From: Hormiphora californensis
Taxonomy: Eukaryota; Animalia; Ctenophora
Assembly: GCA_020137815.1 (NCBI GenBank)
Contig: CM035354.1
Coordinates: 8,723,341 to 8,787,340, forward strand
DNA length: 64,000 bases
Direction of reading: 5' to 3'
A program made the translations under genes and the position numbers. Below, piece after piece: positions 8,723-55,424 of this stretch; position 1 is the first letter of the stretch; each line of letters opens with the position of its first letter. The notes beneath the pieces are model-generated. The model saw only the letters and a program-made list of their open reading frames with translations. It ran no database searches and was not told the DNA's origin.

Positions 8723-9353
8723 AAGTACACCTACAGAGCTCGCAGGCTCGCTCAGTAGTTACACTTAGCGTGCCTCGCAGGCTCGGCAGCTAAGTAAAAG
8801 GATCTACCTCGACCTGTCGGTCTCGGTTCATTATTGTTGTATTTAGAACACTCGGCCTTCGGCCTCGTGCACTAAAAAGTAATAGACCATTTTAACCAGT
8901 CATCTAATCATATAGTGTATACCCAAAAGTGTCTGTAGCCATATGGGTGATGTTCTGACAATCCAATCACGAGTTATAACCGAAAAACACAGCCCTTATA
9001 TGAAGCTTCATATATGGGCTGTGTTCAGATCCTCCTTTCGAAGGGCTGGGGCTTTGAAACTTCTTGTGTGGACAAAGAATTGTCTAAATTTGCAGTCTCA
9101 AATTTCAGATAGCTTCTATTTTTTGTAGTTATCTAATTAGAGTCGTTTAAACATGTGAGAAGTTGCTAAAGGGGCCTATAATAAACAGATAAAAGATAGA
9201 AACTATATCAAAGTCGCAAATTTGGACGATTCTTTGTCCACACAGGAAGTTTCAAAGCCCCAGCCCTTCATATAAGGGCTGTGTTCAGGTCCTCCTTTTT
9301 GTCACTTTAAAAAGTTTTTTTTCCACTGTTTTTCGGTCATAACTTGTAATTGG

Positions 9354-9622
9354 TACAATGAAATAGTGTTTATTTAGGACTGTAGACGACTCGGAGATTT
9401 ATCTCAGGAAAGATAATACGGGACGGTTTCGACGTTTAACGACTTTTCAACACTACTTTAAACAAATTAATTTGAGCTGATGATGACGTTAAACGTCGAA
9501 ACCGTCCCGTATTATCTTTCCTGAGATAAATCTCCGAGTCGTCTACAGTCCTAAATAAACACTATTTCATTGTATCAAAACTATGCGACTCAAAAACAGC
9601 CGATTGGTCAACTTATTGATTC
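9354..9622 (+). mobile_element. SL-hammerhead retro-element copy 1 (inverted partial copy + spliced leader + hammerhead-core body)
   Basis: 12-bp TSD ACTTGTAATTGG (9342-9353, 9623-9634); SL 9442-9476 followed directly by CTGATGA T GACGT-TAA-ACGTC GAAA CCGTC. Confidence 0.75.
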
Positions 9623-9678
9623 ACTTGTAATTGGATTGTCAGAACATCACCCAAATGGCTACAGACACTTTTTGGGTA

Positions 9679-23087: not shown

Positions 23088-23121
23088 GTTTCAAACTTTT
23101 CAACACTACTTTAAACAAATT
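23088..23121 (+). other. Truncated spliced-leader relic
   Basis: GTTTCAAACTTTTCAACACTACTTTAAACAAATT, cut by the MITE at 23122. Confidence 0.7.
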
Positions 23122-23311
23122 GGCAGGTCGGAAGAATCTCGACACACTATTGCAGTACCGTAATAACTCGCTATTACAGTACTGTAATAGCGAGGCCCTC
23201 TAATAGCGAGGCCCTGTAATAACTTGCTATTACAGTACTGTAATAGCGAGGCCCTGTAATAACTCGCTATTACAGTACTGTAATAGCGTGTCGAGATTCT
23301 TCCGACCTGCC
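23122..23311. mobile_element. MITE with internal subrepeats
   Basis: GGCAGGTCGGAAGAATCTCGACAC...GTGTCGAGATTCTTCCGACCTGCC. Confidence 0.75.
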
Positions 23312-25940
23312 GCTAAACTATTATCTGGATCGGGAGGACCATCTGGGGCTGACTCCGATCTATGGAAGCATATGCTGCTATCCAAGAAACTCAGTCCTGC
23401 TTCCGAGCTAGCGCAGGCTATTCCTTGGTGACATTGACACCTAGTGCGTGCGAGATCGAGCTCGCACATAGGTGTCCGCTCCGCCCCCTAAAAAAGGGTC
23501 GTGTCTTTCAAGCCAAATTGCACGTGATCTACTGGACCGATTTGCATCCGGTTTGTCGCAAAAGACTACAAATTGGTCCTAGTTTACTGGAAAATACCCG
23601 AGAAGTTTGTTTGTCAACAGGAAGTGGGTCAAAATTGACACTAAAGTCAAATCTATAATCTGGCTTCCGAGCCTTTTTGCACCACTCCCAGACGGTGTAG
23701 AATGAATCTGAGGGTATCAGAAGATAGGTTGAACTCTTGTGAGTACTGGAAAATACCCGGCATTAATAGCTGATGCTAATTGCATCAACATATCTCCCAA
23801 TATCTTCTAAATCGCATGGGAGTGGTGCAAAAAGGCTCGGAAGCCAGATTATAGGTTTGACTTCAGTGTCAATTGTGACCCACTTCCTGTTGACAGACAA
23901 ACTTCTCGGGTATTTTCCAGGATATTAGGATCATTTGTAGTCTTTTGCGACAAACCGGATGCAAATCGGTCCAGTGGATCGCGTGCAACATCCCTTGAAA
24001 GAAACGTCCCTTTTTTGAGGCGGAGCAGACACCTGTGTATGAGCTCAATCTTGGTCGCGTACGGTGTCTATGTCACCAAGGCTATTCCCACCTTTGCCTT
24101 CAAACTAGCAACAGAACCTACAGATCCAAAACTTTTATCAGCCTATGTTGCATCTCGCTTGGTTCCCCTGAGCAAACGGCCAACAGGTATCAGACCCATT
24201 GGAATAGGGGAAGTTCTGAGGACACTGGCTGGCAAAGTCATTACCCAAGCTCTCAAACCAGACCTGATAGAGTGTACTGCACCCGTCCAGCTGTGTGCAG
24301 GGTTGGAAGGCGGCGTTGAAGCTGCTGTTCACGCTGCTAGAGACTTGTTTGATCTTGAGAGTACTGAGTGTTTATTGTTAATTGATGCGAGTAATGCTTT
24401 TAATTCCCTAAATCGGATCGCTGCTTTGAACAACGTTAAATACACTTGCCCTGAATTTAAGATTTATTTACAAAATACATATGGACTAACTGCGAACCTA
24501 TTTTTATGCGATGGCGAGAACAATAAAGTTTTGAATTCGTCTGAAGGGACAACCCAGGGAGATACTGCTGCCATGCATATGTACGCTTGCTGTTGTCAGA
24601 CACTGACTGTACAGTGTACAGTGTACATCGCGCAACCTACGTGCGAAGAGGTCTTATATGAGACAAGCTTGCTGCCTAATGCCGCTTATACGGTCTGTTG
24701 AGGATAAGGATTCTAAATTGACTCAGATCTTTTACGCAGACGACGGCCTTGGTGGGGGCACTCTCAGCTCTGTAAAAACCTGGTGGGATAAAGTAAAACG
24801 TGATGGACCTGGTTATGGCTATCTCCCAAATCCAGGGAAATCCTCGCTGATTGTGAAACCAGAGTTTGAAGAAGCTGCTCGATCCATGTTCCCTGATGTA
24901 AACATCACTTCTCAGGGCCAGCGCTACCTAGGTTCATACATTGGTACGGAGGAAGGCCAGACCGAGTTTGTGAGAAATGAAATCGTGAAATGGGAGAGCG
25001 AAATTGATCAGATTTGTGATATTGCCCTGAACGAACCTCAGCTTGCATACACTGCATACAACGTCGGACTATCAAAACGTTGGAGCTATCTCATGAGAAC
25101 TACTTCTGGGATTTCGGACCAACTAGGCATTATTGAGGAGAAAATTCATCAGAAGCTCCTCCCGGCAATAACCGGTCAGCCTGTTGTAAATGAAACTTTG
25201 AGATTGGTTGCATCCCTCCCTGTACGGTTCGGAGGTCTAGGAGTGGATAACCCCCAAATAACATCAGACTCAGACTACAGCTTCTCGAAGTTTATCACTG
25301 AGGAGCTCTCAGTTGCAGTCCTAGCTCAACAGGAAACATTTAAAATCAACCAAAAGGAACGAGCAGAGAAGAAAACCCTCATCCACCGAACCAAGAACGA
25401 TATTCATCAGAAGAAAATCGATGAGATCAAAAACATGATGACTACAGCTGAAATCAGAAACCTGGACCTACTCACGCAAAAGGGGGCCTCATCCTGGTTA
25501 ACATGTCTCCCTCTCCAATCTTTGAACTTCACCCTCAACAGGCAGGAGTGGCATGACGCCATGTCAGCCCGTTATAATCTGCCTCTTGTTGGACAGGCCT
25601 TACCTCAGAAGTGTGCATGTGGGGAAGACAACACTATCGATCCCCTCATATCCTGTAAACTCGGAGGTTCTGTTTGTTTCCGACACAACAACGTGAGAGA
25701 TCTCATTGGTCACGAACTGAATCAAGTTTGCATTGGCACTAAGATCGAACCCAATCTGCTAAATGTTCGGGGGTGAATCTACCGGCTGGAACTATTAACA
25801 GCCGATGGCGCCAGACTAGACATCAGTTATAGTCGCGGCTTTTGGTCTGGAATGGACAATATCTATTTCGACGTAAGGATCTTCAATCCAAGGATATCGT
25901 CCAACTCAAACCAGACCATCGCCAAGACATTAAATAAATA
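23312..25940 (+). pseudogene. Disrupted CRE-clade non-LTR retrotransposon (RT + restriction-like endonuclease)
   Basis: GSGGPSGAD (~23330), RPIGIGEVLR, QLCAGLEGGVEAAVH, DASNAFN, EGTTQGD, YADD, LPVRFGGLG, CxC...RHNNVRD, RLDI...FDVR; several insertions and frameshifts. Confidence 0.85.
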
Positions 25941-30076: not shown

Positions 30077-30106
30077 GTATTTTTAAATTTAGTTTCTTAT
30101 TTTAGA

Positions 30107-30510
30107 TACAATGAGTAGTGTTTATTAGGGACCAGTTACAGATTTGGAACCGGGCGTCAGGTTCCTCGTGCGCGAATTTTTGCACACTGCTGACAATGAA
30201 TCATGCTCAACTCCCCATTCATTCTGGAAATTTAGTCGCGAATTGTAAATGATGACGCACAGCATGGTTCATCGGGAATCTCCCATCAGGAATCTCCCAT
30301 CAGGAAACTGACGCCCGGTTCCAAATCTATAACTGGAGCGTAAAGGACTTCTGACGACTCGTAGATTTTATTCAGGAAAAGATAATCGATTATCTTTTCC
30401 TAAATAAAATCTACGAGTCGTCAGAAGTCCATAATAAACACTATTCGTTGTATCAGAAACTATATGCGACTCAAAAACAGCCGATCGCGATTGGTCAACT
30501 TATTGATTTT
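30107..30510 (+). mobile_element. Diverged relative of the SL-hammerhead element (centre missing; MITE inserted at ~30132-30337)
   Basis: Same arms (GACGACTCGTAGATTTTATTCAGG...) and same tail GCGACTCAAAAACAGCCGAT...TTGGTCAACTTATTGATT as 9354-9622. Confidence 0.65.
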
Positions 30511-30595: not shown

Positions 30596-30795
30596 AACAA
30601 ATAATTAATTTGGATGAGATGGTGGAGGTTGGTGGGGTAATATATCTGTTTGGTTTCATTATTCACACGAATGGTGTTGGCGGGTGTGACATGACATCGA
30701 AGACGCTCATTTAGACGTTTCGGCTGTACGCCGATGATGGCCGTACAGTGTACGGCCATTATCAATAATGCTCAATAAATAGTTTTACGTTGTAA

Positions 30796-30836
30796 TTTCA
30801 AATTTTTCAACACTACTTTAAACAAATTAATTTGAG
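30796..30836 (+). other. Spliced-leader relic, not followed by GT
   Basis: TTTCAAATTTTTCAACACTACTTTAAACAAATTAATTTGAG|TTTG. Confidence 0.75.
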
Positions 30837-31690
30837 TTTGCCGTCAATCGATCCGATAACTGTGTTAGCATATATTCTCTAATCTTTTAGATCTTTGTTG
30901 GGCCTACTTTACGAGTGATATTAGTGAAGAGTTTGTTATTGGCCGGCGTGCAACGGGTGTTTTAGGATGACTAAATCGTATGACAGTTGTATCACTAAGA
31001 GTGAATTTAAAGATGTGTTGGTAAGTGATGTATTCAATAATTGTAAGGGTAGTGAATTGTTAGTGTGTCTAGAGAGGGGTGACACTGTTTGTTCGTCGTC
31101 TGTCCATAAACTTCAGTTGTGGGATATTCTTAAAGTCTGCTACAAAATGCTTCCGGCGACGGCACCGTTTTCTGTTCCTGGAGACCAAACTGGTCTGAGA
31201 GAATCGTTTGCAAAGTTACACAAAGATGTGACGGTGTCTTTTTGTGAATTGCTTTTGGACTAGCTTCAAGAATCTGTGTCCAATATCCGTTTCCACTGCC
31301 ATAGAGAATTGGGGTGTATACCACAGGCAATTCGTCTTCTTCCGAAAGGTTTCAGCGGTTTTTTCTTGGTATACCAAATCTTCATCAGAGTGTCCACTCC
31401 TCCTCAACACTTCTTGGTAGAATGGTTTGGCGGCTTCAAATACCTCCTTTGATGAAGAAATCCTGTTAATTCGGTGGTTGATCATTTTAGGGAGGTTCCT
31501 TCGTACTGCAGTGGGCGGGTGATTAGATGATCTGTGGACGTATTCGGTTCTTTTATCATTCTTTCTAAACGGTCTGTAAGACTAAGTCCCGTCTGCTCCG
31601 AATGTTACGTCGAGGTAATCAACTGTTAGCGATGGTGGTGATACAGTGATCTTTAGCCCTTCGTTTGAGAATTCTCACATTTCGCTTATC
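30837..31690 (-). pseudogene. Penelope-like element fragment (RT C-terminus/linker)
   Basis: DYLDVTF...RPFRK...YVHRSSNHPP...PKMINHRINRISS...WYTPQFS...IGHRFLKLV; contains stops; boundaries approximate. Confidence 0.7.
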
Positions 31691-33103: not shown

Positions 33104-33400
33104 TTGAAGTGTGAAACATATTGTTCGGACACGGTGGGTACCAGGGTCGGGCATCCTGGTAAACGCACACAAAAGACCTTACCCGTCTTCGTGTTATTAG
33201 CCTTGATGCGTCACCCTGTATCCCCACCCAGTTTTATCCAGTGTGGCTGGTTTTCTTGACATTATATATTTAATTTCGGCACATGCCACTGCCAGCGGCA
33301 GTTTTGATTGATTGATTGATAAATTTTTCCTGATTCTCTCCACACCGGAAGCCGACAAGTTCTCCAACAACATCGGGGGGGGGGCCTGCCGTAAAAATAG

Positions 33401-44869: not shown

Positions 44870-47063
44870 CAGGGGTGGGCAAAAAAAATGTCCGCCCTAG
44901 ACTAGCATGGTTCCAGATATCGTAGAGCGCTAAAATTTGGCAGAGTTACTCTATGGGACAAATAAATAGGTTGACCAAAATTTCAGACTTTTAGCTCAAA
45001 ATTCATTTTTTTGATCGGAATGAACATTATCATTCATTCCAAAAAAAATGATTTTTCGGTCCAAAAATTAAACAGCTGTTTTTGGCTATCGATTAGCTTT
45101 TCAACGCGACCAAGAAAACCCGAAACGAACAACCACAAGACACACAGTGGGCGTGTTTCTGACAGTTAGTCAGGTAATGTGATCCTATTCATAAATCATG
45201 GAGCAATTTAAATTAAGTATACAGAAGTGGGTTAAACAAAGGTTAGAAATACAGAATAAATTAACAGAAAATTCAAAAAACTCAGAAAATTCACAGAATT
45301 TTAAAGGTATCGCTCAATATGCCCTCCAGCTTGTTGGATACAAACTGCACACCTTTTCTTTACGGACTGGCAAGCGTTTCTGATATGAAGAAGGTTGGTG
45401 TTCGAAGCAGCTCTCTCGATCGCTGCTCTGTGGAGGAGGTGGGAAGAATAAGGTCCGTTGATACCAACTTCACCCTTTAACCATGACCAATACCAAAAGT
45501 CAAGCGGGGTAAGGTCTGGGGAACGAGGAGGAAACTCGCCAGAAGTAATCCGTCGGGGAACCAACGTAATGACTTGGTTTGAGAAGGTCGATGAAAGAAG
45601 AGTTCGGTTCAGGACTGTAGTGTGACAAGTGGCACCATCTTGCTGGAACCAAAACTCCGACATCTGGACGCCGTTCACTGTGCACCAATTCTGGATGTGG
45701 GGAATCACTTTCTGTGTCAGCAGTTGATTGTATCCATACTGATCCATTGCCCCCTTCCTCGACTGCTGGACTTGTGACAGGTCCTTCAGAAAGAATGGGC
45801 CGATAAGTCCCATACGGCTGTTGAATCCAGCCCAGATGTGGATCTTGGGAGAGAAAGAGGATTTATTCACTGCAAAGTTTGCAGGAGGTGCCGTGCTGAA
45901 GTACAGGTTGTTGAGCTTGGTTCCTCCAGTCCCGTCTCGGGCGAAAGCTGATTCATCGGTCCAGATGATTTTGTCCTCAAAGTTGGGATCCAGGGCTTGG
46001 TGTGCAGCAAACCAGTTGGAAAATGCCAGCCGCCGTGCAGGATCAGTTGGATGCAGCACCTGTTGGAGTTTTCTCTTGTATCCTCTGACTCCGTTTGACT
46101 TGTGGATACGGCTCACGGCTCGGCGGGATGTTTGAAGTCGCAATGATCGTTTCTTAGTCGATTGAATCGGGGTTGCCAATGTATCCCGGAGCACTGCAGC
46201 TGTAGAGGCGGGTGATGTTGCTGATTTCTTCCTCCCGGATCGGCCCTTGTTGTTATTCTTAGAGTGTCCCTCGTTCGATACTGTCTTGTGGATCCTCCTG
46301 CATGATCTGGCGCTGGGTGGGTTCCGGCCGAATTTCAGGATAAAGCGCTGCTCCAGTTGAGGGTATTCTGCTCCATTCTCCTTCTCCTTCCAGATAAAGT
46401 TGCGTTGATGTGAAGTAAATTGAGGCATGATGCAATAATTGATTGAAAATTATCTGACTTAAATATCCTCCCTGACATGACCATGTGACCCATAACATGT
46501 TACCTTTCTTGATGAATTGTGAGGTGATCTTCATGAAAACAAGGTTTCGCCCCTCGGATCACATGAATCATCCCCGTGCGGCGTGCACCCGTGACATGAC
46601 TCCTGTCACATCCAGTATCTACCGAAACATGAGAATATCTGATAGGCCAGTCACAGTATCGGTCCAATTCCTCATTAGCGGCCTCGATACGTGATCCCCT
46701 ACCGCTTTAGCCAATTAATTGCTCTATTGATCCATGATTTATGAATAGGATCACATTACCTGACTAACTGTCAGAAACACGCCCACTGTGTGTCTTGTGG
46801 TTGTCCGTTTCGGGTTTTCTTGGTCGTGTTGAAAAGCTAATCGATAGCCAAAAACAGCTGTCTAATTTTTGGACCGAAAAATCATGTTTTTTGGAATGAA
46901 TGATAATGTTCATTCCGATCAAAAAAATGAATTTTGAGCTAAAAGTCTGAAATTTTGGTCAACCTATTTATTTGTCCCATAGAGTAACTCTGCCAAATTT
47001 TAGCGCTCTACGATATCTGGAACCATGCTAGTCTAGGGCGGACATTTTTTTTGCCCACCCCTG
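44870..47063 (-). mobile_element. Full-length Tc1/mariner element with ~333-bp TIRs
   Basis: TA|CAGGGGTGGGCAAAA...TTTTGCCCACCCCTG|TA; TIRs nearly identical. Confidence 0.92.
45301..46428 (-). CDS. Tc1/mariner transposase, rosa/DD41D-like with DD45D spacing
   Basis: Intact 375 aa; WTDES, QQDGATCH, PPRSPDLTPLDF, GGHIE; 45 residues between the 2nd and 3rd catalytic Asp. Confidence 0.92.
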   Translation of the reverse strand: MPQFTSHQRNFIWKEKENGAEYPQLEQRFILKFGRNPPSARSCRRIHKTVSNEGHSKNNNKGRSGRKKSATSPASTAAVLRDTLATPIQSTKKRSLRLQTSRRAVSRIHKSNGVRGYKRKLQQVLHPTDPARRLAFSNWFAAHQALDPNFEDKIIWTDESAFARDGTGGTKLNNLYFSTAPPANFAVNKSSFSPKIHIWAGFNSRMGLIGPFFLKDLSQVQQSRKGAMDQYGYNQLLTQKVIPHIQNWCTVNGVQMSEFWFQQDGATCHTTVLNRTLLSSTFSNQVITLVPRRITSGEFPPRSPDLTPLDFWYWSWLKGEVGINGPYSSHLLHRAAIERAASNTNLLHIRNACQSVKKRCAVCIQQAGGHIERYL

Positions 47064-47321
47064 TATAATAGTTGAAACACGCATGTTGCGCAGAAATCTC
47101 GCAATTTTTGGACTGATTTCATAGTGGGAGACACTAGCGTGGTACGCGCAAAAAAATGCGCGCCACATACCTAAAATAACAGGTGTGTGGCGCGCATTTT
47201 TTTTGCGCGTACCACGCTAGTGTCTCCTACTATCAAATTTCTTGAGCTGCTAAGGGCGAGCTCGATGCCCTCTTTCCAGCGAGCCCAGGAAAAAGCAATT
47301 TGGCCAAGAAATGGCTGATTT

Positions 47322-48127
47322 AACTGAATCAATCGACCAATCGGCTGTTTTTGAGTCACATAGGGGGAGACACACTGAAGTTGAGCGCGCTCGTTCAAAT
47401 CTCAACCTCGCGACACACACTGAAGTTTGAAGTTTTGCGAAAACCCATTATCGGCTGAGAAATCATTTGTAAGATGGTAACTTATTTACTGGTACATCTC
47501 TCGAGGTGTCCTTTATCCATACCAAGTCAATTTCACTGTTTTTAAAATGTTTGGCGAATTGGGACAACTGTGACTGAATTAGCCAAATATTTCAAAAATG
47601 GTGAAATTAACTCTGTATGGATAAAGGACACCTCGAGAGATGTACCAGTAAACAAGCTTGCATCTTACAAATGATTTCTCAGCCGAAACTGTTTTCGCGA
47701 AACTTCGAACTGTTCCACGAAACTTCGAATTTCAGCTGTATGGCGGCGCCATACCCCATTTGACAGTGCGCTCAGATGGGTCGCGGCGCCAGACAGAATT
47801 TCAGTGTGTGTCGTGAGGTTGAGATTTGAACGAGCGCACCCAACTTCAGTGTGTCTCCTGCCATAGTTCTGATACAATAAAATAGTGTCTATTAAGGACT
47901 GGTAGACGACTCGGAGATTTTATTTAGGAAAGATAATACAGGACGGTTCCGTCGTCATCAGCTCAAATTAATTTGTTTAAAGTAGTGTTGAAAAGTTTCA
48001 GCACTACTTTAAACAAATTAATTTGAGCTGATGATGACGTTAAACGTCGAAACCGTCCCGTATTATGTTTCCCGAAATAAATCTCCCAGTTGTCTGCAGT
48101 CCTAAATAAACACTATTTTATTGTGTC
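47322..48127 (-). mobile_element. SL-hammerhead retro-element copy 2 (two head-to-head SLs; MITE inserted at ~47364-47860)
   Basis: ~14-bp TSD AAATGGCTGATTTA (~47308-47321, 48128-48141); SL on - at 47962-47997 and on + at ~47998-48027, each fused to CTGATGA. Confidence 0.75.
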
Positions 48128-48324
48128 AAATGGCTGATTTATGACCAAAACCGTCCATTTTTAATTTTTATTGGTGTGTGCTGCCCCTAACAGTAACATA
48201 AACTGAAATAATAACTTTTGATAGCGAGATCGCATTTTAAACACTTTCTAATAAAGTATTTAATTAGCTTAGTGCTGCATTGATCTATCTGAGATAGATA
48301 TTATTACTATTAGTATCTCGACCC

Positions 48325-51351: not shown

Positions 51352-52622
51352 TTAGTATCCCCAGAGTTTCCAAGCTCCAATCAGGACGAGTGCCACAGCA
51401 AATCCTCCAACGAAGGTAAGTAACATGTTCCACGGAAGTTGGTTCCACAAAGTAAGGCGGCTATCTGGAGATATGGCGTTAACAGCTTTACTGATCTCTC
51501 GGTCGGTTCTTGAAGAGTCTGGTCGGAGGTATTGGTAGAGGGCAGTAGTTGTCGAGTGACCGGTCCTGGTCTTTATCTCAGCGGCAGTCATCCGCTTCTC
51601 GTTCAACATCGTGGCTGTAGTGGCTCTTACTGAGCGGAGGCTGAGGTTCCGTTCAGAGGCCCCTTGGATCCCTGTTCTCTCGATTAAATTCTTGAAAATC
51701 AGGTTGTAAGAAGCCTTGCCCATACATCTACCTTTGCAATACCACGCGGTGTTGTTGGTAGGCGGTATCTTCCGGGGGTGGAGGAACAGCCTGTTTGTTG
51801 GCTCCTTTGCGTAGTCCACCGGCAGGTGCGAGAGGTACATTCGGAGGAAACATGTCAGAGAGTAAGAGTCCCCGGAGTCATCCACATGGACAACCACTTT
51901 GGGCTTCTTATTTATCCCCGAGAGCCCACCCTGTTTGTTTTTTGATCTCCTCTCGGTGTAGGTGATCTGTGTCGTACCGTCCTTGTTATCATAGATTGTG
52001 ATGGAGTCGATGGTGAGGGCGGCTAGCTCTTCCCCTCCCCGCAGGCAGAAAATCCGTGCAACTTGAAATACTAGTCCCTCTAGCAAGGAGAACCTGTCAC
52101 AATCAGCCGGTCTTGTGTTCAGGAGAATAACTCTAACTTCCTGATCAGTAAGAATACCAGGTTGAGTGTACTTGATCTGCTGTGTTGCTTGCTTCTTCTT
52201 CAGTAGCCCATCCACTACATTCCTAAACTGACGGAACATGGGGCTCGAGAGTAAATCCAATTCGGGGTGCTGCTCCTTAAAGTGTCTGTTTATCGCAGTA
52301 ATGCAGGCATACACGGTCCTGTGAGCTACGTTGTCGAAGCTCTCAACAAGGAAACACTGGAGTATGTAGTTCAATCGAGGGGGGGGGGAATCTCGTCCAA
52401 AGTAGTGAAACCAAATGTTGTTCCCTTGAGCCAGTTGTCGAATTTGTTAACTCCCCACGAAGTGCTCTTTCTTGTGTTGGGAGGTATCCTGTCTTCCAAT
52501 AACTGGGATATGGCAAGGTTGAAGTTCGGATGTGTTCCGGATTCTTCTTCGTTGTCCGACTCACTTAGTGAGGAGAGGTTAACATCGGACCAGTTGATAC
52601 CGGGGACTGAAGAAGAGGCCAT
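51352..52622 (-). CDS. Crypton tyrosine recombinase (DUF3504-type), one frameshift at a G homopolymer near 52380
   Basis: LRGGEE, SKNKQGG, RSVRAT, TGHS...YLR; the upstream ORF 52371-52622 (IPPNTRKSTSWGV) is the N-terminus. Confidence 0.8.
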
Positions 52623-52732
52623 TGGTATACCGCTAAAAAGTTAGGAATGATTAATTTAAAAACCGTAATAAAATAAGCGGGGTATAAGGAATCTAAAAAG
52701 GGGAGGGTCATAAAACATGAAGAGTTGTGCAG

Positions 52733-55424
52733 TTCTCTACACCATATTTAGAAAAGATAGAAGTGAAATCGACAAAAATAAGTATGGTAAAAAAGGGGGC
52801 GGTGGAGTAATGATATTATGTAAAAACCATAGTGATATACAGTACTCTGCTATTATGGAGCAAACTGACCTACCAATAGTTAGTATTCTAGTTAAGCCTA
52901 AGAAAGGACCTAAGTTATGCATCTCGACCTATTACAGATACGACTATTCCGACTGTGAATCCAACAGTCAAGCTGAAACGTATTATAAAGTTCTCTCGAA
53001 GCGATATAATTCCCTTACAATAATAGGCGACCTCAATCTTAGCTCTATAAAAAACTGGGATTTGCCTTCATCCAATGTTGGCAGACAATCTAGTTTCCTT
53101 GAAATCGTAAGTAACCTTGGTATGGTATCCCTGATAAACTCTCCTACGCATCGTTCAGGAAATATCCTAGACCTCATTCTTACAAATAGACCTAGCATAT
53201 ATAATCAAGTTAAAGTTGAACAGGATCTATTAGTTAAATCTGATCATAGCACAATTAAATGTACGATCAATTTAGGAGTCTCCATGAAAAATACTGCCAA
53301 GTTTAGAAAATTTTCATATAAGAAAGCAAACTGGGATCGGATTAACCAAGATCTGAACTCATGCAATGTGTCTCTTGTCTCAAATCAAAACTAGACATTA
53401 TCCTAAAAAGGTACGTTCCTATGGTCACTGTTAAACCCTCCTCTCGTCCACCCTGGTTCGATGAAGACCTAAAAGCTCTCCGAAAATCTGTAGAAAGAGC
53501 CCGCAAGCTTCATCTTAAGCATCCTGACGATATCACCTTAAACGACGAATACGTATCCCTGGCTGACAATTACAAACTCTCTGTAGAAGACAAAAGAGCT
53601 AGTTACTATACAGACGAGGAAATGAACGACAGTAATACTATAACTAAAAAGTTCTACAAGTATCTTAAATCTTTAGTAGGGAGCACTAGAATTCCCGATT
53701 CTGTTAGTGACAATAACAACTCTTCCTGTAGAACTTCTGAAAAATGTAACATGTTCAACAACTTCTTCTGTGCTCAATTTTCTGATATTAGTAGTTACAA
53801 TACAGTAATCGATCCTAACAGGAACCACGTAAATGACTGTAATAATCTTCTATTTAGAGAGGAGGATGTTCAAAAAATCCTCAAGGATATAAACCCCTCC
53901 AAAGCAACTGGTCCTGACAATATAGACGGTATTGTTCTTAAAAAATGTTCTTCAGTCCTAGCTCGCCCTCTTGCATACATCTATAATCTCTCATACCATT
54001 CCAGTTATTTGCCATCAGAATGGAAAGAGGCAAATGTAGTGCCAGTCCACAAGAAAGGGGACAAGTCTCTAGTTAAAAATTATCGGCCTATATCTCTAAC
54101 CTGCCTAGTAATGAAGGTATTTGAAAGACTTATTAGGGACAAGCTCTTCCTTATTTGCCAAGATAAAATTTCTCCTCATCAACATGGCTTTGTACCTAAT
54201 AAATCATGCTGTACCCAGATGATTGAATTCACTGACAGCCTCGCCTACAATATAAATAACCATCTTCAGACTGATATCGTATATTTTGATTTTGCTAAGG
54301 CCTTTGATAGTGTTAATCATGATGTAATTATAGATAAACTCCGAGATCATTACAATATTAATGGGAAAATGTTAAGTTTCATTATAGAATATCTTAGGGA
54401 TAGAAAACAGCGGGTAGTTATAGATAGTATATCCTCTGAATGGGCACCAGTACATTCTGGGGTGCCTCAAGGATCCATTTTAGGACCACTTCTTTTTGTC
54501 TTATTTATTAATGATATCACTAGTGTAATCAATCAGGGTACCAATAGTAGGCTATATGCTGATGATCTCAAAATATGGAAAAGTGTACACTCTCCCTCAG
54601 ATAGCCTACAATCCGATATCGACAACCTTCACAAATGGTCTATAGAAAACCGCATCTCCTTCCACCCAGCTAAATGTAAATTAATAAGGCTTAATCTAAA
54701 TAGACGTGAAATAGCTCATTCTTACACTCTTGCAGGGGAATTAATTGTTTCAGTTTCCTCTGAGAAAGACCTCGGCATTCTTATTAGTAACCGATTGAGT
54801 TATGAGGAGCACAGAAATTCTATTCTTGCTTCCCAGAGGCAAAAGTTAGGGTTATTAAAGAGGCACAGTAAATTAGCTAGAACACCACCTGAACGGAAGA
54901 CCCTATACTTGTCTCTTGTGCGGTCCTTACTAGAACATTGCTCACAAATCTGGAGACCAACTAGTACAGCTGGGATTGAAAAGCTAGAAAAACTCCAGAA
55001 GCGAGCGATAAAATGGATACTAGATGAAGAAAATTCTAGCTACTCTGAGGTAGAATATTTTTCCAAGCTTGCCAACCTCAACATACCTCCTATTCGTAAT
55101 AAATTCGAGCTTAATGATTTAATGCTTCTGCACAAAATAATATATGGTACCTCCCCAATCGATCTCCCTCCTTATCTCTCGTTCTTTACCCCCTCCCAGA
55201 TAGTAATAAACACTAGGGCCCAATCCAATATGGATTCACTCCACCTGATGACGTCCGAGGTTCCTAGAGTTAACATATTTGAAAATTCCTTCTTCTACCG
55301 TGCCCATAAGCTCTGGAACCTTCTTCCGCTTTCCCTGAGAGCTACTTCTGATCCCATAATTTTCTCTTCTCAATTAAAAAGACATCTTTGGGATAGTTCT
55401 GGGACTGATCAGGGTGTCACTTAG
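52733..55424 (+). pseudogene. 5'-truncated CR1/L2-group LINE ORF2 (APE endonuclease + RT), frameshift near 53370
   Basis: IFRKDR, GGGVM, IGDLN, LDLIL, SDH; YRPISL, DFAKAFD, GVPQGSILGP, YADD, EKDLG. Confidence 0.9.

Follow-up and report, generated by a model that had tools for sequence, protein, structure and literature searches.

The window, a 64,000-nucleotide stretch of the Hormiphora californensis genome (contig CM035354.1), contains three copies of a short insertion, and in the first of these a ctenophore spliced leader (SL) is joined directly to the first base of a hammerhead ribozyme core. Copy 1 is a 269 bp insert (9354–9622) lying between 12 bp target duplications, and its parts are arranged as follows:

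9342–9353, no strand: left target-site duplication, 12 bp, identical at 12/12 positions to 9623–9634
9354–9441, minus strand: inverted arm, an 88/88 reverse complement of 9487–9574
9442–9476, plus strand: ctenophore SL exon, 5′-truncated (35 of 44 nt), with no GT after it
9477–9506, plus strand: minimal hammerhead core, consisting of CUGAUGA, an extra U, a 5 bp stem II, GAAAC, a 1 nt loop and GUC
9485–9489 and 9493–9497, plus strand: stem II of the core, 5 bp
9504–9506, plus strand: GUC of the core, with the predicted cut after 9506
9507–9574, plus strand: body common to both arms, without a long reading frame
9575–9622, plus strand: one-sided 3′ tail, 48 nt (in other copies the family end is ~4 nt further)
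9623–9634, no strand: right target-site duplication
8963–8974, minus strand: target site without insertion, in the opposite arm of the host inverted repeat, 10/12 identical, single copy

An earlier note on this DNA had described the insertion, its 12 bp duplication, the inverted partial copy and the empty site that the host repeat keeps in its second arm, and all four stand with the coordinates given above. Its ~110 bp tail does not; this comprises ~68 nt common to both arms and a true tail of 48 nt at one end. The inverted arm spans from the inside of stem II to the inner end point, and the tail is absent from it. The host of copy 1 is a nested pair of inverted-repeat elements (8922–9675 and 9040–9269). 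The other two copies are located as follows:

47309–48141, minus strand: copy 2, with a 14 bp duplication (47309–47322 = 48128–48141) and both arms extending into the SL
47323–47363, within the minus-strand copy 2: its tail
~47364–47861: later inverted-repeat transposon inside copy 2
30098–30508, plus strand: copy 3, older, without SL or core, its arms meeting at 30387–30388
~30133–30337: later insertion inside copy 3

The copies have several features in common. First, the inverted arm ends at ~9574–9578 (copy 1 numbering) in all three. Second, the forward arm alone has a further ~45–50 nt tail, which occurs a single time in each copy. Third, the target duplications are unequal, 12 bp in copy 1 and 14 bp in copy 2 (copy 3 gave none resolvable). 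Finally, the centre of the insertion varies between copies and always faces the RNA 5′ end; in copy 3 the arms join 1–2 nt 3′ of the predicted cut site. The Penelope-type anatomy that had been proposed from the inverted partial copy and the long duplication is supported. Insertions of EN+ Penelope-like elements (PLEs) are described as having an inverted truncated arm, a one-sided tail of 30–40 bp and 8–10 bp duplications (PMC8557442, PMC3846280), and the PLE protein of the anole cuts and extends both target strands, with two internal RNA start sites delimiting the tail (PMC11167929).

The leader of Hormiphora californensis is printed as 44 nt (PMC8527503), and the 35-mer of copy 1 corresponds to its 3′ 35 nt at 35/35 positions; the earlier identification as a ctenophore SL is therefore correct as to identity but not as to completeness, the sequence being 5′-truncated. 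A 25 nt SL pattern has four exact matches in the window and none in 100 shuffles, and 107 exact matches among metagenome contigs. That the sequence should lie at mRNA 5′ ends is supported by 97 of these 107, which lie no more than 30 nt from the beginning of a contig or locus, in mRNA-like contigs, and by the excess of sense over antisense ORF length in 94 of the 97, counts that come from metagenome contigs and not from RNA of the sequenced individual. The pattern had no match in the viral and prokaryote contigs searched. SL copies in the window are followed by CT or TT and never by a GT donor, and they are not SL RNA genes. An SL RNA gene is present at locus L068 (263–381, 693–735, 1041–1159), where the exon is followed by a GTAAG donor within a 778 bp tandem repeat containing 5S rRNA.

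PLE minimal hammerheads have an extra base after A9, a G10.1–C11.1 pair, a palindromic helix III and a helix I of 4–5 bp (PMC4209133). Both of the first two are present in the core, and its helix III loop is a single base and not palindromic. A minimal-hammerhead descriptor matches the window at three places (9477, 48028 and 30586, the last an unrelated motif) and has no match in 40 shuffles (2.56 Mb, both strands). No hammerhead family was matched by the element in an Rfam search at E≤10, as is expected for a core without helix I; the search gave only hairpin-driven miRNA and snoRNA matches, all below the gathering score, and the fold of 9442–9634 is not more stable than its shuffles (z −0.36). 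The motif is a core only, since helix I cannot form with the SL. In copy 1 the SL occupies the place of the 5′ strand of helix I; in this SL-headed form one of the first four helix I positions pairs and the best duplex reaches −0.8 kcal/mol, which rules out the SL 3′ end as completing the helix. Because the SL cannot rebuild helix I, the SL-headed RNA that was copied is predicted to be a disarmed ribozyme, and probably was. Variants listed across the family number 0 in 9477–9513 and 10 in 9514–9623 (p 0.049, with those near contig ends unlisted), and by this comparison the core is conserved within the family. The earlier note had staked its reading on conservation or covariation of stem II across copies; conservation of the core is found, and with no variant listed at 9477–9513 no covariation of stem II was seen within the family.

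The family extends well beyond the window. At least half of the sampled words are present in 13 of the 24 public runs listed, and read layouts were made for four runs, three of them DNA. Summed body depth in the three DNA runs is 18,000–290,000 as against 13–340 for the listed contigs, which suggests that the family has hundreds of copies, summed depth being, by the tool's own warning, no copy number. Loose ends at 9621–9623 are of low agreement (0.41–0.53), as for many different flanks at one fixed 3′ end. At least two subfamilies have the SL–core junction in common, and five strand-switch joints are present in the read layouts, one of them perhaps the window's own locus and counted once. Among metagenome contigs the exact core pattern has no match; the element body was not seen at 106 metagenome SL loci among the BLAST matches listed, and no hammerhead was found 3′ of the SL among the metagenome SL loci listed. 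Since the read depth of the SL is several times that of the core in the runs examined, most genomic SL copies head things other than the hammerhead family.

The same arrangement is found in a second SL–hammerhead family, recovered from the loose end behind 9480 in run X2, in which the SL is joined to the first base of the core (C3) in three contigs at an agreement of 0.96; its stem II is different (G4/C4) and its helix III is palindromic. A candidate third family (the loose end behind 9477 in run X1) has a mixed consensus with an agreement of 0.62 and was not counted. Loose ends behind 9483–9487 in the RNA runs resemble ordinary mRNA starts.

Trans-splicing of the source RNA is well supported. 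The absence of GT after the SL had led to the proposal that the insertion is a cDNA of an already trans-spliced RNA, and this is strengthened by the discovery of an unspliced form. In run X9 (organism B) seven contigs, with an agreement of 0.87, align from the AG at 9475–9476, and upstream of this AG there is a branch-like CTAAC motif ~20 nt 5′, a stretch with 13/16 pyrimidines and then TAG. The family therefore exists with a splice-acceptor-like sequence exactly where the SL sits in other copies, and it is the presence of branch point, pyrimidine tract and AG at this position in seven contigs that supports trans-splicing. One contig in the marine RNA run X15 starts at 9475 and is preceded by 184 unaligned letters; among the loose ends listed for organism A (24 of 246 being listed) there is none of the unspliced form. 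Bridging of the SL–core junction was scored at a threshold of 31 letters on each side, and only one listed DNA contig has at least this much (run X1, record 1). In the organism B contigs the SL side amounts to 19 and 14 letters, and the single RNA contig spanning the junction is 50 nt long with 22 letters on the SL side, short of the bar of 31, and could be DNA.

The SL also differs from the body in its divergence between copies. Between the window copies there are 0/35 differences in the SL and 8/68 in the body (p=0.03), in a second pair 1/31 and 12/68 (p=0.04), and in a third 1/31 and 8/68 (p=0.16), the three pairs not being mutually independent. With the SL less diverged than the body, it is likely that the leader is added anew in each round rather than inherited. 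Helix I of the unspliced form, judged by eye, is weak, with four of its first five positions pairing and an A–C mismatch, and 5/5 pair with the variant from the forward arm of copy 2. Trans-splicing is thus likely to disarm a ribozyme that is already weak.

We consider it likely that these insertions were made by a Penelope-type reverse transcriptase (RT) copying the 5′ end of a trans-spliced RNA in which the SL is joined to the first base of the core. The steps envisaged are these. In the pseudo-LTR of the source element a 3′ splice acceptor would sit on the 5′ strand of hammerhead helix I. On receiving the host SL at this acceptor, the RNA would become capped and lose the helix strand, so that self-cleavage would be prevented. 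The enzyme would then nick both target strands 12–14 bp apart and begin cDNA synthesis within the RNA at two positions, which lie ~100 and ~150 nt 3′ of the SL–core junction. Each cDNA would extend as far as the capped 5′ end, and the head-to-head joining of the two would produce the pair of arms and the tail on one side. The leader would be renewed in every round and not inherited. Unspliced RNA might conceivably cleave itself instead, in which case the resulting copies would begin where the RNA was cut.

The two arms of an insertion bear on how the cDNAs are made. Copy 1 shows 0/67 differing columns between its arms, copy 3 shows 2/45 and copy 2 shows 13/68. Because the arms of copy 2 differ to this extent beside a perfect 14/14 duplication, this copy was probably built from two different RNAs. 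For copy 1, snap-back synthesis or gene conversion would also account for the identity of the arms. Across window copies and strand-switch joints, the longer arm starts in the SL in 5/7 and no more than 2 nt from the cut site in 2/7. This cut-site class consists of copy 3 and one joint starting at 9506, if the latter is read head to head, and the other four joints start in the SL, among them the one that may be the window's own locus. The chance of such clustering is ~0.03 for a 5 nt window picked afterwards, and these arm starts are only a hint of cleaved templates.

The chances that the template RNA continues into an RT-endonuclease frame are near even. An ATG in the tail at 9583 is open to the element end in copies 1 and 3, not in copy 2, and in copy 3 its frame has an in-frame 6 nt insertion. 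This ATG could open a PLE frame, given that in published elements the tail can overlap the first codons; by eye, its 14–15 codons have no likeness to the start of P0002. No autonomous partner of the family could be linked, only the PLE remnant in the window having been compared, and that remnant is ruled out as a partner by its different hammerhead and the absence of AG before the core.

This remnant is a broken endonuclease-type PLE (31231–31674 and 33320–33373, both minus strand), interrupted by LINE pieces. The piece at 31231–31674 is 78% identical to P0001 and is grouped by the Atlas with HTH_animal clusters. P0001 ends, by eye, in a cysteine motif and a GIY-YIG-like region on which Pfam made no call, a layout that we take to be Nematis-type. 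An endonuclease-type PLE, with an RT and a putative C-terminal endonuclease-type region, is on this evidence present in the genome as a remnant. The broken PLE has its own fuller hammerheads at both ends (30586, minus strand, and 33410, plus strand), each with a 5 bp stem II and a palindromic helix III, and there is a scrambled third hammerhead type at 30700–30790, with a 3 bp stem II and a small internal inversion.

Several other accounts of the insertions were weighed. The one that survives best, which corresponds to the SINE-like reading of the earlier note, is a self-propagating, SL-headed, non-autonomous family whose genomic copies are themselves transcribed and recopied; the SL would then be inherited, and the AG at its end might serve as the acceptor through which splicing renews it. 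High abundance, a fixed 3′ end and an SL–core junction common to at least two subfamilies would all follow from such a life style, as would a core AUG without a reading frame (from the stem II AUG, copy 1 has 13 codons before the stop and copy 2 has 23). However, an acceptor-bearing form exists, drift has been smaller in the SL than in the body, there are no pol III boxes and no tRNA head, and GAG is rarely used as a splice acceptor; furthermore, the copies in the genome form long hairpins in which the SL is truncated, and are presumably poor templates. We regard this account as unlikely.

A second possibility is that the SL was gained without splicing, by an RT that switched templates onto SL RNA, a free SL exon or a capped mRNA. 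Retroelement enzymes jump between templates, the insertions already contain a strand switch, and SL-bearing RNA is very abundant, as the depth in run X15 indicates. Such jumps would nonetheless have had to fall at the exact exon end in 3/3 SL-bearing window arms and again in the second family, with no SL intron sequence after the SL, and at the very position where the unspliced form has its AG, branch point and pyrimidine tract, a coincidence that makes the switch distinctly improbable.

The third account, favored by one of the labels in the earlier note, is a non-LTR retrozyme, a circular-RNA replicon processed by its own hammerhead. A hammerhead core in a short, non-coding unit of low GC is what such an element would have, and a PLE link has been proposed for retrozymes in the literature. 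Yet there are no head-to-tail monomers (150–450 nt) in the three copies, all of which are arranged head to head; no unit-length go-back joint is listed in the run contigs, where short contigs limit detection; and the hammerhead is minimal rather than a canonical type I with a 6 bp helix I, which is absent altogether from the SL form. With tandem monomers lacking and helix I lost, the retrozyme label is not supported and the reading itself is very improbable.

An ordinary MITE or fold-back DNA transposon with a chance piece of SL between its arms, the alternative that the earlier note had set against its own reading, is suggested by the long, near-perfect inverted arms and by a window that abounds in true inverted-repeat elements, yet is barely credible given asymmetric ends with the tail on one side in 3/3 copies, duplications of 12 and 14 bp rather than a fixed short length, a variable centre that always faces the RNA 5′ end, and five strand-switch joints. 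The SINE-like label of the earlier note is not supported either: there is no match to pol III A or B box motifs, no tRNA head and no Rfam match, and the element ends in unique sequence without an A-rich tail.

Among metagenome loci with at least four foreign letters 5′ of the SL (13 in all), six are LINE heads in which a first frame precedes an endonuclease frame (Pfam Exo_endo_phos, below the cut-off in one case) and two are homologous to those heads; the remainder are two unconfirmed ORF1-like frames, one SL gene and two mRNA-like loci. The SL-headed LINE copies belong to several families (L020, L029, L032, L049, L063 and L066, also L098 and L105, with L054 and L101 unconfirmed), and L009 is an mRNA-like contig in which the SL is present together with an ORF1-like frame. 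In this lineage LINE RNAs appear to be trans-spliced before they are copied, and SL capture is not peculiar to the SL–hammerhead family, given these LINEs with an SL head.

The window has a LINE head of this kind at 30796–31240 (plus strand), where the SL is joined to a LINE 5′ end that is 83% identical to L029, an element with an ORF1 and an endonuclease ORF2; it lies antisense inside the PLE remnant. A nearly full SL at 23088–23122, cut off by an inverted-repeat transposon, lies upstream of an RT frame (23811–25773, plus strand), the two possibly constituting another SL-headed retroelement (Pfam RVT_1 is weak); by its motifs the frame is presumably CRE-like. Other open frames recognized by eye are Tc1/mariner transposase-like (45304–46449, minus strand), tyrosine recombinase-like (51355–52446, minus strand) and CR1-type LINE ORF2-like (52714–55421, plus strand).

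Leader sequences are dispersed in two ctenophore genomes, with 718 and 491 copies (PMC8527503). Retroelement heads offer an explanation for these, 8/13 of the loci above being LINE heads by domain or homology and 1/13 an SL gene, and dispersed SL copies may be a source of error in gene annotation.

In the anole study, which bears on the role of the PLE hammerhead, no RNA ends were found at the cut site and cleavage was not needed in vitro (PMC11167929). In the insertions described here the SL shows, at the DNA level, where the template RNA truly began, so that hundreds of copies could be sorted into those from capped and those from cut templates, and the arms of each insertion could be typed as derived from one RNA or two (copy 2 suggests two). 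A broader proposal, which we put forward only tentatively and consider doubtful as it stands, is that trans-splicing is a ribozyme switch: several unrelated ctenophore PLE-type families would have an acceptor on helix I, and a transcript would be either SL-capped, and so disarmed, or cut. Were this so, the two classes of insertion would document, in the genome itself, that PLE hammerheads cleave in vivo, the short non-coding family would have a promoter-independent, self-renewing 5′ end, and most dispersed leader copies in ctenophore genomes would be retroelement heads.

Among the listings of the literature searches there is no description of SL-headed PLE insertions or of an SL joined to a hammerhead core (subscription papers, supplements, Repbase and Dfam lie outside this scope). 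The ingredients are known separately; their combination, with a fixed junction at the first base of the ribozyme in two families, appears to be new. Insertions of EN+ PLEs, as described for Penelope/Poseidon, Neptune and Nematis (PMC8557442, PMC3846280, PMC11167929), resemble those reported here in the inverted 5′-truncated arm, the one-sided tail and the duplication of ~8–14 bp, as well as in the hammerhead motif near the RNA start and the two end points, which match two internal RT start sites. They differ in that a host SL exon heads the unit here, that the tail is 48–52 nt rather than 30–40, and that no RT-endonuclease frame is linked. In the anole element the AUG of stem II opens an ORF (PMC11167929), whereas here it closes after 13–23 codons.

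The closest precedent is the Penelope of Drosophila virilis, in which an intron ends on the 5′ strand of hammerhead helix I (PMC4209133), the position proposed above for the acceptor. That element is described as cis-splicing to its own exon, and its copies keep the intron; here trans-splicing is to a host leader and the spliced form is copied, and loop III is not palindromic, in contrast to the Drosophila virilis variant (PMC4209133). Trans-spliced RNA as a template is shared with the SL-tagged retrocopies of dinoflagellates (PMC5585692, PMC12014239), and use of host trans-splicing by transposon RNAs with Hydra, where SL-capped transposon transcripts account for ~30% of TE Iso-Seq reads (PMC12220107). 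Those are retrogenes and transcripts, respectively, whereas the insertions described here are short PLE-type fold-backs with the SL at the first base of the hammerhead. Finally, metazoan non-LTR retrozymes (PMC7229834; bioRxiv 10.64898/2026.07.22.740005) are likewise short, non-coding and hammerhead-bearing and are thought to use PLE enzymes; retrozymes, however, are built of tandem monomers whose type I hammerheads are canonical and active, and they form circular RNAs, none of which was seen here.
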